In this document: one piece after another, positions 16,342 to 23,957 of the stretch | Layout: every line of letters begins with the position of its first letter | How positions within the stretch are numbered: position 1 is the first letter of the stretch | NCBI GenBank assembly: GCA_963702425.1 | Contig: CAVPCQ010000007.1 | Span: 1-29,985, forward strand | Direction: 5' to 3' | DNA from: an uncultured Acidobacteriota bacterium | Lineage (GTDB): Bacteria > Acidobacteriota > Polarisedimenticolia > J045 | Length of the DNA stretch: 29,985 nt | Position numbers and translations under genes: made by a program | Notes under the pieces: model-generated | What the model saw: the letters and a program-made list of their open reading frames with translations, nothing else | Told to the model about the DNA's origin: nothing | Databases searched by the model: none

Positions 16342-16998
16342 ATGACCGACGGCAAGAGGGGCTGGGGCGGCACCGTTCTCGGATGGTTCGTAGTCCGCGA
16401 CGACCAGGACGCCGAGGCCACGGAAACCGGTGCGGATGCGCCTGATACGGGGTCGTTGCCGCCCGCGGTGGAGCCGGTCGGCGAGCTGCCCGACGCGCCG
16501 GACGGAGTCGTGGATTTCGAGGCGGTCTTCGGGGCCTTCGGCATCGACGCCGAGGCCCGGGACCGCCTGGCCAAGGCGGATGGACTGCTCGAGAGCCTGC
16601 CCGCAGGCACCGACGCGACGGTGAAGCGGCAGATCGTCGAAGCGTCGCTCAAGGCCTTCGGGGTGCCGGTCGAGCAGATGATCGAGACCGCCTGCGAGGA
16701 GATCCAGGCGCTCGACGCCTACCAGCGCAGGGCCGGCGCTAACCTCCAGGCCTTCTGCGACGCGGCGGGGCAGCGGGTCGCGACGCTGGAAGCGGAGATC
16801 CGCTCGATCCGGGCCTCGATGGACCAGGAAGTGGAGAACCAGAAGAAGACGCTCGAGACCTGCAACCGGAAGAAGCTCGAGGTGCAGCACGTGCTCGAGT
16901 TCTTCGGCCCGGAAGCAGTCGGTCGCATCGTGCGGGCCTCGCCGAAACTGATCGATCCGAGCGCGCCCGGAGCGGCCGGCGGCCCGCCGGCGAAGTAG
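16342..16998 (+). CDS. Hypothetical helical/coiled-coil protein, first gene of the PspA operon
   Basis: 218 aa with a GAGGGGG RBS. N-terminal 'GWGGTVLGWFVV' hydrophobic patch, acidic Pro-rich linker and long C-terminal coiled coil; codon usage looks coding. Confidence 0.85.
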   Translation: MTDGKRGWGGTVLGWFVVRDDQDAEATETGADAPDTGSLPPAVEPVGELPDAPDGVVDFEAVFGAFGIDAEARDRLAKADGLLESLPAGTDATVKRQIVEASLKAFGVPVEQMIETACEEIQALDAYQRRAGANLQAFCDAAGQRVATLEAEIRSIRASMDQEVENQKKTLETCNRKKLEVQHVLEFFGPEAVGRIVRASPKLIDPSAPGAAGGPPAK

Positions 16999-17043
16999 CG
17001 TTCGCGGGCGCGCCGCCGCGCCCCCTGAAGGAGAGCCCACCCC

Positions 17044-17757
17044 ATGTCGGACATCGCGTTCTTCACCCGCATCGCGAACCTCTTCAAGGGGTTCCTTTCG
17101 ATCTTCATCTCCGACATCGAGAAAGAGCACCCGGAGATCGCCTACGAAAACGCCATCAACTCGATGGTCGGGAAGTACTCGAAACTGAAGGCGGCGACGG
17201 CGGCGATCATCCGCCGGCGCGAGGACATCGACGAGCGCCTGAAGCGGGCGACGACGGATCTGGCGCAGACCGACGCAGAACTCAACGCGGCGATCGCGAC
17301 CGGCCAGGACGACCTGGCGCTGATCCTGATCCAGAAGAAGAACCAGCTCGCGTCCCAGGCCGTCGAACTGCAAGGCGACATGGAGACCGCGCGCAAGGAC
17401 GCGGACGACGCCAAGTCGTCGATCCTGCAGGTGCAGTCGGAGATCAAGAAGTTGAAGGCCGAGCGCGACGTGATGCTGGCGCGGATGCAGTCGGCGCAGG
17501 CGCGGATCAAGATCCAGGAGCAGCTCGAGGGGCTGTCGGTCGACGCCGAGGTGAAGGCGCTGGACAACGTGCGCGAGCACATCAAGAACACGATCGCTCA
17601 GGCGAATCTCGGGAGGGAGCTGGCCGACACGTCGCTCGATTCGCGGCTCGAGGCACTCAAGACCCAGGCCGGGGACGTGCAGGCCAAGCAGCAACTGGCC
17701 GAACTGAAGGCCAAGTACGCCGCGCAGCAGGCGTCGCAGGGCCAGAAGTCGATGTGA
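17044..17757 (+). CDS. PspA/IM30 (bacterial ESCRT-III superfamily) protein
   Basis: 237 aa with an amphipathic N-terminal helix (FFTRIANLFKGFL), 'EKEHPE', a long helical hairpin with 'GQDDLA', and C-terminal 'LDSRLEALK...AKQQLAELKAK'. AAGGAG RBS. Confidence 0.85.
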   Translation: MSDIAFFTRIANLFKGFLSIFISDIEKEHPEIAYENAINSMVGKYSKLKAATAAIIRRREDIDERLKRATTDLAQTDAELNAAIATGQDDLALILIQKKNQLASQAVELQGDMETARKDADDAKSSILQVQSEIKKLKAERDVMLARMQSAQARIKIQEQLEGLSVDAEVKALDNVREHIKNTIAQANLGRELADTSLDSRLEALKTQAGDVQAKQQLAELKAKYAAQQASQGQKSM

Positions 17758-17860
17758 CGGGCGTCCCGAATGTACCCGGTGCGGCTGAGTTGACGGGCAG
17801 GACTGATCGGGCGGGCACGGTCGATCAGACGAGGGTCACGGCGGTCGAAGGAGACTTCGC

Positions 17861-21135: not shown

Positions 21136-21137
21136 CC

Positions 21138-22100
21138 GTGGGTTCCTCGCTCCCGCCGAAGGGACCGCCGAAGGCGCAGACCGCGTCGCGGCCGCCGCCG
21201 CGGAGCAGTACCGTGACGCCGCCCCGAACCGCCGCCTCCACGGCGCCGGCGAAGACCGCCACCACGCCCCCCCTCACCCGCGACAACGCGACCCCGGCGA
21301 CGGTCACGCGCGCCTACCTCGAGCGGCGCCCCTATCTGAGGATGGCCTTCGCGAACCCGTACAATCTCTCGCTGCTGTTCGGCACGCTGTCCATCTCCGC
21401 AATGACCTCGGAGCCGTTGCTGGCGCTCGCCGCGCTCTCGGTCGAGGCGCTCTGGCTGCTCTTCGGGCCGGAATCGAAGCTGCTGCAGCGGGTCCTGTGG
21501 GACCCGGCCCTCGAGCGCTCGCGCCGCGAGATCGAAGCGAAGGCCCGTGCGGCGCTCCTCGGCGCGCTGAACCCCGGCGAGCGGCAGCGGGTCGACGCGC
21601 TGGTCGAACGGCAGGAGCAGATCCGCAGCCTCGCCGCGCAGAACCCCTCCTTTACCGGCGACCTGTTGCGCACGGAGCTGTCCAAGACGAACCGACTCGT
21701 CGACGCCTTCGTCGAGATGGCGCTCAACTGCGCGCGGTACGAGCGGTATCTCGACTCGATCGATCCCGCGGAGCTGGAGCGGGACCGCTACCGCTACGGC
21801 GAAGCGGTACGGACCGGCCAGCTCGACGATCAGCAGCTCCAGATCGCGCGGAAGAACTTCGAGATCGTCACCAAGCGGCTCGAGCGGATGGCGGAGATCC
21901 GGCGCTACCTCGAGGTGGCGAGGGCGCAGCTCGACCTGATCGAGAACTCGTTCCAGCTGATCGCCGACCAGATCGTCACGATGCAGTCCCCCAAGGAACT
22001 CTCCGGCCAGCTCGACGAGCTGCTCGACGGCGTCGAGGCGATCCGCGAGACCGTCCGCGACACCGAGCAGATCCTCGACACGATCGACAAGGAGCTGTGA
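21138..22100 (+). CDS. Hypothetical membrane-anchored coiled-coil protein (about 320 aa)
   Basis: GTG 2 nt after the ABC ATPase stop. Pro/Thr-rich N-terminus, two short hydrophobic helices ([30 protein letters not shown]), then a long helical region ending '[16 protein letters not shown]'. Confidence 0.8.
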
Positions 22101-22102
22101 CC

Positions 22103-23957
22103 ATGGCCAGCGCTCGCCTTCTCCCGGCCTGGGCGGAGGAGCTTCGGCGGCGCTACCTGCGCAACGAAGCCTCCCTCTTCGTCCTCCACGGCAACGTCTA
22201 CGACGCGGTGGTCCACGAGGGCCGGCTCTGGTCGCTCACCGATTTCCTCACCGGGGTCCTGCTGCGCGAGACCAAGGAGACGATCGCGGTCTACAACCTC
22301 GCGACCGGCGTGCGCTTCGCGAAACGCGCCCGCGTTCTCCCGGAGGTGGGAGAGCTGCTCGCCGCCGGAGGCCGTGACAGGGCCCTGCTCGCGCTCGAGC
22401 AGCTGGTGACCGCCGGCACGAAAACGGCGGCGATCCTCGAGTACGCGGAGACGCTCGCGCCGGCGGGGGACGCGTCGTTTCAGGCCGATGCCGACCGCGC
22501 ATCGATGATCACGCTGCATCGCTGGTCGTTCCTCCCCGAGATCGAGCGCGGGGACAACGTCGTGCTGCTCATCACCGAGAACCTGACCGAGCTGTCTCCG
22601 AAACTCGTCTCGAATCCGAAGGTCGGCGTCGTCGACATCCCGATGCCGGATCTCGAAGCGCGGCGGGCGACGGTCCGAATCGCGGACCCGACGCTGGCCG
22701 GCCCGGACGTCGATCGCTACGCGGAATTGACCGCCGGGCTCAAGGCGATCCAGATCGCGTCGATTCTCACGCCGCCCCCTGCCTCCGAGGAGGAGCGTGC
22801 GGACCGCGAGGCGTTCATCGCGACGCTGCTCGGCGGCGGATCGGATGTCGCCGAGCGGGCGAAGAAGCTCGCCACGCTGACCGCGGGGATGGTCGCGCGA
22901 CGAGATCCGCAGGCTCATCGCCCCCGAGGCCGGCGTCCCCGCGGTGGCGCCGGTCGACGCCGCGGAACGCGCGCGGCGCGATGCGGACCGGCTGATCGCT
23001 GCGCGCAAGCGCGACATCATCGAGCGCGAGTGCTTCGGCCTGGTCGAGTTCGTCACGCCGGAACACGGTTTCGAGGTCGTCGGCGGGATGGAGGCGGTGA
23101 AGGAGGACCTGCGGGTCATCGCCGACAACATCCGCGAAGGACGCCGCAGCCGCGTGCCGATGGGCATCCTGTTCACAGGGCCGATGGGGACGGGGAAGAC
23201 CTTCGTCGCCGAGGCTTTCGCGAAGGAATGCGGGCTCACCACGATCAAGTTGAAGAACTTCCGCTCGAAGTGGGTGGGAGCGACCGAAGGCAATCTCGAG
23301 AAGATCCTGAGCGTCATCAAGGCGATCGGGCAGGTCGTCGTGATCGTCGACGAGGGCGACCGGGCGTTCGGCAACACCGGCGAGGAGGACGGTGGCACCA
23401 CCTCCCGAGTGATCGCCCGCATCAAGGAGTTCATGTCCGACACCTCGAACCGCGGGCGGATCCTGTTCCTCGTGATGACCAACCGCCCCGACCGGCTCGA
23501 CCTCGACCTCAAGCGCGCCGGGCGCCTCGATCGCAAGATCCCCTTCCTGTACTCGCAGACGCCGGAGGAGGTCGAGCGGGTCGCCCTCGCCCAGTTCCGG
23601 AAGAACCGCGTCAGGACGAGCCCCGACCCGCTCGACCTCGTCCCGCTGCGCGACCGCTTTTCCGCGAAGCTCGTCGGTTACAGCAACGCCGATGTCGAGG
23701 CCGTGGTGCTGATGGCCAACGACGACGCCGCGCGCCAGGCGGGCGGCGACGCGCCCGTCACGGCGGAGCACCTCGTGGCGGCGGCGGCGGACTACTTCCC
23801 GAGCCGCGACGTCGAGCTGCTCGAGTACATGGAGCTGCTCGCGGTCTTCGAAGCCTCGAGCCGGCGTCTCCTGCCGGCGAAGTACGCGTCGCTGACGCCC
23901 GAGGAGCTGGACGCGCGGATCAGGCTGCTGCGCGCGACCGTCGGCACCCGGCGCTGA
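22103..23957 (+). CDS. AAA+ ATPase (degenerate N-terminal AAA module plus active classical AAA domain); +1 frameshift near 22892
   Basis: AAGGAG RBS and ATG 22103. Removing one G from 'atggtcgcgc' (22889-22898) joins the two frames as ...[11 protein letters not shown]... (617 aa). Motifs [20 protein letters not shown] and [16 protein letters not shown]. Confidence 0.88.

Follow-up and report, generated by a model that had tools for sequence, protein, structure and literature searches.

A PspA operon with a two-domain AAA+ protein and an ABC importer cassette in an uncultured Acidobacteriota bacterium

Described systems and the present operon

The disassembly of the polymers formed by PspA and Vipp1, the bacterial members of the ESCRT-III superfamily, is an open question, and a 2025 review states in its passage on the subject that a Vps4-like ATPase appears to be absent in bacteria (PMC7619361). 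Section 18 of a recent survey reports that PspA is occasionally found with a protein carrying two AAA+ domains, of which the N-terminal one is inactive, that such operons also encode an ABC (ATP-binding cassette) ATPase, a permease and a PBPB-OmpA protein, and proposes for them an ATP-dependent membrane remodelling comparable to that of Snf7 and Vps4 (Ravi, Anantharaman, Aravind and Gennaro, mSystems 2024; PMC11237479). Here we describe one instance of this operon class, a run of seven genes at positions 16342-23957 of a 29,985-nt stretch of DNA from an uncultured Acidobacteriota bacterium (contig CAVPCQ010000007.1 of assembly GCA_963702425.1; the whole stretch is called the window below). The class has been described but is uncharacterised, and the system is not a new discovery: full-text literature searches found no functional study of it, and the passages of Popp et al. 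(2022; PMC9239133) covered by those searches do not mention this type of operon.

The neighbourhood set out in section 18 of the survey agrees with the present one in that PspA adjoins a two-AAA protein with an apparently inactive N-terminal domain, and in that an ABC ATPase, a permease and an OmpA-fused binding protein are encoded in the operon. A preliminary description of the window, made from the sequence alone, had allowed that similar neighbourhoods might have been noted in genomic surveys; the survey indeed holds both the neighbourhood and the same hypothesis. Its section 18 also mentions "Snf7 homologs with a TM segment" (TM, transmembrane), whereas the transmembrane protein encoded here by gene 6 has no detectable similarity to Snf7 or PspA; the Snf7-TM homologue is said there only to be one that "may occur", and could thus be an optional element. 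Gene 1 goes unmentioned in the passages of section 18 (PMC11237479).

Three better-known systems share parts of this arrangement. Archaeal and eukaryotic ESCRT-III with CdvC or Vps4 likewise has a polymer-forming protein of the superfamily encoded beside a classical-clade AAA protein with an aromatic pore loop, and the SKWVG pore loop of the gene 7 protein presumably resembles that of Vps4. The gene 7 protein differs from Vps4 and CdvC, however, in lacking an MIT domain, in having two AAA-type domains rather than one and in being nearer to D2 of Cdc48 and VAT than to CdvC, and its partner belongs to the PspA clade and not to the Snf7 clade. In Escherichia coli, PspA is likewise genetically coupled to an AAA+ protein in the PspA-PspF/PspBC system; PspF, however, is a sigma-54 activator with a helix-turn-helix (HTH) domain, whereas the product of gene 7 is an AAA protein of the classical clade and of unfoldase type that lacks a DNA-binding domain, and the present genome departs further from canonical Psp systems in that no PspC was found in it and no sigma-54 consensus upstream of gene 1. 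With the type II unfoldases Cdc48, p97 and VAT, finally, gene 7 has the tandem AAA architecture in common, its best sequence matches being to their D2 domains, but its first domain has no Walker A motif, no double-psi-barrel was detected, and the protein is much shorter (617 aa).

We read the operon as encoding PspA together with a dedicated two-domain AAA+ protein that would turn over the PspA polymer, the products of genes 1 and 6 acting as adaptors and the ABC module as an accessory, and we put the probability of this reading at roughly 55%. Among the points in its favour, the linkage is kept in 50 of 57 loci and in a version about 30% identical (genome G006); the operon PspA is the genome's only PspA_IM30 match above the cut-off, besides a near-identical copy on contig C33; and section 18 of the 2024 survey drew the same inference independently (PMC11237479).

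Linkage of pspA and the AAA gene

Because the window has a G+C content of about 70%, at which long spurious open reading frames (ORFs) are plentiful, the coding frames were set by third-position GC (GC3 frame plots) together with the ORF list. Seven genes follow one another on the plus strand, at 16342-16998 (gene 1, 218 aa), 17044-17757 (gene 2, 237 aa), 17861-19486 (gene 3, 541 aa), 19493-20335 (gene 4, 280 aa), 20332-21135 (gene 5, 267 aa), 21138-22100 (gene 6, 320 aa) and 22103-23957 (gene 7), with intergenic gaps of 45, 103, 6, -4, 2 and 2 nt, the negative value being a 4-nt overlap of genes 4 and 5. The co-oriented genes and spacings given by the preliminary description agree exactly with this layout, and its domain content is borne out by Pfam for genes 2, 3, 4 and 5 and for the AAA part of gene 7. 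The AAA gene that it placed at the end of the operon is likewise present, not as the single open frame that it supposed: the span of 1855 nt holds a change of frame near position 22895, which is taken up below.

For the comparison of neighbourhoods, contigs from one genome per species were used, where, of 440 candidate stretches, 347 have a gene for a relative of the AAA protein. The best 80 loci (70-98% identical), bearing the titles Vicinamibacterales, Thermoanaerobaculia, Blastocatellia/Pyrinomonadaceae and Holophagales, were examined, and synteny was counted, with all seven proteins as queries, in the 57 whose DNA reaches 6.5 kb or more upstream of the AAA gene. Genes 1-2-3-4-5-6 stand in this order upstream of the AAA gene in 50 of these 57 loci. 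The remaining seven have PspA alone directly upstream (four loci), genes 1-2-6 (two) or genes 1-2 (one); the ABC cassette is missing in all seven, and in all seven PspA is kept beside the AAA gene. Overall, PspA is directly upstream of the AAA gene or within the operon in 57 of 57 loci, and gene 1 is upstream of pspA in 53. The invariant unit is the PspA-AAA pair and the usual core is gene 1-PspA-gene 6-AAA, while genes 3-5, the ABC module, act like a removable cassette between pspA and gene 6. That the seven genes belong together, as had been supposed from the window, is upheld by their co-occurrence across several Acidobacteriota classes, and their linkage is found far more often than chance would give.

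The absence of the ABC cassette from 7 of the 57 loci, and its resemblance to the common TauABC/SsuABC importers, would also suit a chance adjacency, in which an ordinary sulfonate/taurine-type importer operon and a psp gene pair lie next to each other with no functional coupling. We find this barely credible, given that 50 of 57 loci have the cassette, in unchanged order, between pspA and gene 6 and that the version in G006, about 30% identical, keeps it, the fusion of the substrate-binding protein (SBP) to OmpA_C included.

In G006, a genome from the family of the window genome, the AAA protein and the SBP-OmpA protein share only about 30% identity with their window counterparts. The genes of G006 run PspA, SBP-OmpA, permease, ATPase, gene-6 homologue and AAA, so that six of the seven are kept, the gene-6 homologue aligning to gene 6 with an hhalign probability of 96.7% (E 3.3e-10); a gene for a VWA-domain protein stands upstream of pspA, in the place of gene 1 (L010). 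Five more distant AAA homologues were sampled, and for three of them the distance between PspA and the AAA gene is 1-2 kb.

Other arrangements were seen in passing. G055 (L093, contig C5, 66000-77000) has PspA, a 278-aa coiled-coil protein, a TonB_C-domain protein and the AAA gene, and G277 (L091) has the same arrangement, as judged from matching gene sizes; hhalign related the proteins adjoining PspA in these two genomes to neither gene 1 nor gene 6. In L089, the place of the ABC cassette is taken by an opposite-strand gene for a flavin amine oxidase (5722-7347, minus strand; PF01593, E 1.9e-52), which recalls the polyamine links of PspA operons in passages of Ravi et al. (PMC11237479).

The AAA protein is 70-86% identical across classes, and 73-86% identical over its full length among the best 120 clusters listed. 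Matches at E<=1e-30 were present in 3 of 41 relatives, the window's genome included; among 401 genomes sampled evenly over the phylum, 58 have a match at E<=1e-40, and 10, again with the window's own genome, carry a full-length orthologue of at least 69% identity. The distribution is patchy.

Patchiness of this order (3 of 41 relatives; 10 of 401 phylum genomes for the close full-length orthologue) would also suit an anti-phage or abortive-infection module, which PspA, the AAA protein and the transporter would then form together; an ORF resembling an Xre/MbcA-type antitoxin just upstream and weak, generic PADLOC 2.0 matches (IetA at 1.4e-06; ZorB by way of the OmpA domain) point the same way. 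All PADLOC 2.0 matches run through generic domains, however (ZorB/OmpA_C, IetA/TRIP13 AAA, mad3 ABC), an identity of 70-86% across classes is unlike that of fast-evolving defence genes, and the antitoxin-like neighbour is present in only 1 of the 80 loci, so that a defence role appears very improbable to us.

The encoded proteins and a proposed PspA cycle

The product of gene 2 (17044-17757) is, by profile match, a true member of the PspA/IM30 family, as the preliminary description had it. PF04012 (PspA_IM30) matches it at E 4.8e-19, with 69.3 bits against a cut-off of 33.9, residues 7-224 aligning to positions 3-217 of the 220 in the model. A profile of 42 orthologues, whose mean column identity is 75% across classes, matches Vipp1/PspA structures (8qfv, 8qbw, 6zvr and others) over positions 1-223 at E 2.6e-10 to 1e-7. 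The N-terminus is hydrophobic at residues 4-22 (hydropathy), as would suit the membrane-binding helix that the PspA family is known to have.

As a side observation on the same protein, residues 195-206 (17626-17661) hold a conserved D-x-x-L-x-x-R-L-x-x-L-K pattern, with S197, L198, D199 and L202 invariant and R201 and L205 nearly so. We take this stretch to fit the MIM1 consensus of ESCRT-III tails, as a candidate; a MIM1-like pattern may be common in helix 5 of PspA, and the AAA protein has no MIT domain.

Gene 7 starts with an ATG at 22103 and is read in frame 2 over 22103-22894, which encodes a degenerate AAA-like N-domain (frame plot, hhalign), and in frame 0 over 22896-23957, which encodes a linker and a predicted active AAA domain of the classical clade. 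The C-terminal domain matches PF00004 (AAA) at E 6.8e-26, and its best PDB matches are the D2 domains of Cdc48, VAT and p97 (E ~1e-40), which agrees with its earlier placement in the classical clade. In NCBIfam, the CDC48 subfamily (80.8 bits, 7.4e-23) stands above CdvC (57.9 bits, 7.9e-16), PAN and FtsH, all four scores being far under their cut-offs. AAA motors are recognised by Walker A and B motifs, an aromatic pore loop and the arginines of the second region of homology, and the domain has a Walker A motif GPMGTGKT, a Walker B motif VVIVDE, the pore loop SKWVG, a RAGRLD element and the arginine fingers; among 30 diverse homologues there is little or no variation at G359, G362, G364, K365, D416, E417, R471, G473 and R474. 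By these motifs the motor is an intact classical-clade AAA domain with an aromatic pore loop.

In the N-domain (about residues 1-270) the GK[ST] motif is missing, and a conserved FxLHGNVxD stands in its place. In hhalign, N-domain and C-domain align in register (probability 59.5%, E 9e-5, 156 columns), YAE falling over the DE of Walker B and TEN over the TNR of sensor 1, with an IPxPD element in addition, and an Atlas search with the N-domain brought up AAA-family clusters at 0.86 and 0.80, as leads only. The hhalign result lends moderate support to an inactive first AAA domain, as published for the class. The N-domain family comprises 785 representative clusters at E<=0.001 and 59 at E<=1e-30. 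Pfam gives residues 1-264 no MIT family match at E<=0.01, a double-psi-barrel N-domain was not detected, and neither Pfam nor NCBIfam finds a DNA-binding domain in the protein. The comparison with Vps4 drawn in the preliminary description thus fails as regards architecture, the protein having no MIT domain, two AAA-type domains and Cdc48 D2 as its closest kin. In architecture and nearest relatives gene 7 appears to encode a short, Cdc48-like two-domain AAA protein, which could nonetheless be Vps4-like in function. A complex prediction for the full-length gene 7 protein with PspA scored 0.00 in two runs, both without controls, and is weighed neither for nor against binding.

The main rival to polymer turnover is membrane-protein quality control, in which the AAA protein would extract or unfold damaged or mislocalised inner-membrane or transporter proteins, with the products of genes 1 and 6 as adaptors and PspA only sealing the membrane. 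Cdc48, VAT and p97, to whose D2 the AAA domain is closest, are general unfoldases; no MIT-type ESCRT-III-binding domain was found in the protein; two of the five distant AAA homologues are unlinked to PspA; and envelope proteins of other kinds (TonB_C, VWA) occur in variant operons. Set against these points, only PspA never fails to accompany the close AAA orthologues (57 of 57 loci), in four loci as the sole member of the set, and the operon encodes no protease or degradation partner detectable with Pfam and NCBIfam. We consider quality-control extraction unlikely.

The tight PspA-AAA dyad would fit an inhibitor and its target equally well. Under a regulation of the PspA-PspF kind, PspA would hold the AAA protein inactive until membrane stress, upon which the freed AAA protein would act on the gene 6 protein, the gene 1 protein or the transporter; a precedent is the inhibition of the AAA+ protein PspF by E. 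coli PspA, as given in a passage of the review cited above (PMC7619361). The gene 7 protein, however, is without a DNA-binding domain and falls in the classical clade and not in that of the sigma-54 activators, its conserved aromatic pore loop points to substrate threading, and no evidence favours any particular downstream target. We rate this pairing as decidedly improbable.

The frame of gene 7 is shifted by a single extra G at 22895, which makes its span of 22103-23957 indivisible by 3; with this base removed, the gene encodes the intact protein of 617 aa. The base is missing from a second copy of the operon in the same assembly (L008, contig C33) and from a genome of the same genus (G004, L009), and contigs from two public runs of two studies (X1 and X5) bridge the site without it. 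None of the public-run contigs compared had the extra base, those of X2 and X3 not bridging the site; no public run held half of the sampled words, and the window's own sample probably lies outside those compared. Because four related sequences lack the base, and because the indel pattern of L008 and L009, which have seven and four further single-base indels in the region that disrupt other operon genes, resembles assembly error, the frameshift is probably an artefact of assembly. It could also be a real, strain-specific lesion.

The second copy (L008, 1-12000) begins inside gene 1 and is colinear with window positions 16548-28552, at 97.5% identity; its seven single-base indels disrupt pspA, the SBP gene and the permease gene. 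The window genome is 91% complete, with an estimated contamination of 5.85%, and the copy looks like a co-binned strain variant and not a true duplication. L009 has single-base insertions of its own at places matching window positions 21174 (in gene 6) and 23875 and 23888 (near the 3' end of the AAA gene), because of which the AAA match of G004 ends at residue 594; they are a further sign of indel-prone assemblies in this group.

Gene 1 (16342-16998; GC3, alignment, AF2, that is AlphaFold2) and gene 6 (21138-22100; alignment, AF2) belong to unnamed families. In the alignment of 39 gene 1 sequences, a conserved N-terminal W-G-x-T-V-x-G-W-F motif is followed first by a disordered linker of variable sequence and then by a conserved helical domain, which has a helix of about 80 residues and is modelled by AF2 with pLDDT above 90 (mean for the protein 83.4). 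Gene 1 has no Pfam or NCBIfam match, its best PDB profile match is at E 0.099, and Foldseek against the PDB gives nothing at E<=0.001, the best row being at E 1.7. The gene 6 protein has a variable N-terminus rich in Pro and Thr, a conserved hydrophobic hairpin at about residues 74-112 and a helical domain of about 200 residues that is modelled confidently (mean pLDDT of the protein 78.8). It has 2325 homologues, of which the best 120 listed carry no Pfam domain and are named, where their source gives a name, "hypothetical protein". Among 37 members no consistent Pfam match was obtained, the Snf7 model included; a PDB profile search gave 0 matches at E<=10, and Foldseek against the PDB gave none at E<=0.001, its top rows being BAR domains at E ~0.1 and Vipp1 at E 0.3. 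The Snf7 model PF03357 matches nothing in the genome, even at E<=10. These look like two conserved families without annotation, in which no similarity to PspA, Snf7 or a solved fold is detectable.

A kinship with PspA or Snf7 was tried for these proteins and rejected. Against the PspA alignment, hhalign gives a probability of 0.3% for gene 1 and 0.2% for gene 6, and a kinship of gene 6 with Snf7 or PspA finds no support from Pfam, PDB profiles or folds; the nearest named cluster of gene 6 in the Atlas, the Rv2743c (PspM) family at 0.85, lies under the 0.9 mark, counts as a lead only and is not supported by Pfam.

Genes 3 to 5 form the ABC module. Gene 3 (17861-19486) encodes a predicted N-terminal anchor, an SsuA/NMT1-type binding domain and an OmpA_C-like domain: Pfam finds OmpA (2.2e-15), NMT1 (9.6e-13) and Phosphonate-bd (5.9e-10), NCBIfam finds SsuA_fam (3.6e-25, under its cut-off), and hydropathy places a hydrophobic anchor at about residues 8-25, with no obvious lipobox. 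The binding protein would thus have an inner-membrane anchor and also attach to peptidoglycan. Gene 4 (19493-20335) encodes the permease (BPD_transp_1 in Pfam; TauC/SaoP-like in NCBIfam, under equivalog cut-offs) and gene 5 (20332-21135) a TauB/SaoA-like ATPase (ABC_tran at 3.6e-32 in Pfam; the NCBIfam taurine ATP-binding subunit at 4.2e-61, under its cut-off). Because all NCBIfam transporter scores are under the equivalog cut-offs, genes 3-5 can, from their sequences, be assigned only to the NitT/TauT-type importer family and not to a substrate. The permease, the ATPase and the fold of the binding protein are those of TauABC/SsuABC importers, from which the module differs in these scores and in the fusion of the gene 3 binding protein to OmpA_C with an N-terminal membrane anchor; the C-terminal domain itself matches OmpA_C peptidoglycan binders, among which are tethers such as MotB and Pal. 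Some archaeal ESCRT loci hold a gene for a ProX binding protein, according to the relevant passage of Makarova et al. (2024; PMC10936438), which parallels the binding-protein gene of the operon.

Put together, these features suggest the following course of PspA turnover. PspA would polymerise on the cytoplasmic face of the inner membrane by way of its N-terminal amphipathic helix, stabilising or reshaping the membrane. The gene 6 protein, with its membrane hairpin and cytoplasmic helical domain, and the gene 1 protein, with a putative N-terminal membrane-binding motif ahead of its helical domain, might each serve as a membrane-proximal anchor or adaptor. A hexameric AAA motor would then thread and extract PspA subunits, leading to disassembly or turnover of the polymer, a step analogous in function to that of Vps4 on ESCRT-III while coming from a Cdc48-like lineage. 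The TauABC-like importer with its tethered binding protein might serve as an accessory, linking the system to a solute of the periplasm or to envelope geometry.

Several points weigh against this account. A physical or functional interaction of the AAA protein with PspA is presumed from gene linkage; the protein has neither an MIT domain nor another known ESCRT-III-binding module, and with general unfoldases (Cdc48, VAT) as its nearest relatives, its substrate could be other than PspA. The synteny counts hold for loci that had been selected because their AAA proteins are closely similar, and the AAA and PspA genes are unlinked in two of the five distant homologues (G135 and G191). Genes 1 and 6 are without informative homology, which leaves the adaptor roles guesses, and the NCBIfam transporter scores, all below cut-off, point to no one substrate. 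Guesses, too, are the roles given in the preliminary description, by which genes 1 and 6 would recruit PspA and the ABC module would sense or import a ligand from the envelope. The AAA gene is, moreover, frameshifted in the window, and a genuine extra base would mean a broken copy here.

To the passages of the 2024 survey, the present analysis adds the gene 1-PspA-(gene 6)-AAA core with the ABC module as a removable cassette, the recognition of genes 1 and 6 as conserved families without any annotation, a motor that appears Cdc48-D2-like with its pore loop intact and its first domain without Walker A, and sister operons that swap the cassette or gene 1 for other envelope proteins (TonB_C, VWA). 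For the question of how bacterial ESCRT-III polymers are disassembled, the operon class offers a conserved candidate ATPase together with its cognate PspA. A more far-reaching version, which we hold tentatively and as possible rather than probable, is that the operon encodes an independently arisen counterpart of the ESCRT-III/Vps4 cycle, in which a Cdc48-derived motor disassembles PspA at sites marked by the gene 1 and gene 6 proteins and is wired to a trans-envelope tether and importer. If so, Acidobacteriota and the other carriers of the wider family would have a functional ESCRT-III/Vps4 counterpart, inner-membrane remodelling or repair would respond to a periplasmic solute or to the spacing of wall and membrane, and the review's statement that a Vps4-like ATPase seems absent in bacteria (PMC7619361) would be overturned.

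Regulation and flanking genes

A gene for an NtrC-type sigma-54 activator (REC, Sigma54_activat and HTH_8 domains) lies on the plus strand at 11760-13190, 3.1 kb upstream of the operon, and has a counterpart in only 9 of the 80 loci. A sigma-54 promoter consensus was not found upstream of gene 1 and is present there in only 4 of 52 loci; across the window its matches number 17, against 19.5 in shuffles, and are therefore not in excess. A scan of 15500-24800 for sigma-70 promoters and terminators gave nothing informative on the plus strand. The preliminary description had stated that pspB, pspC, pspF and lia genes are absent; as to PspC this stands, PF04024 finding no match in the 91%-complete genome, while PspB and lia were not searched.

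In six loci (L015, L026, L049, L054, L056 and L082), similar activator genes on the opposite strand lie upstream of gene 1, within a few kb of it, and no sigma-54 promoter consensus accompanies them.

Between the activator gene and the operon, TPR_10 and TPR_12 matches are spread on the plus strand over three overlapping frames (13434-14435, 13963-15663 and 14867-15370), which suggests that a TPR gene at 13434-15663 has been broken by frameshifts or by further assembly indels. An ORF at 15576-16199 on the minus strand encodes an Xre/MbcA/ParS antitoxin C-terminal domain (E 1.6e-09), with no toxin gene identified beside it. The segment 13195-16242 has no counterpart at the same place in the same-genus genome G004, where a segment homologous to the antitoxin-like ORF (86% DNA identity) lies downstream of the operon and not upstream. 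On the downstream side of the operon in the window, a convergent sulfatase-TPR gene at 24630-26750 closes it.

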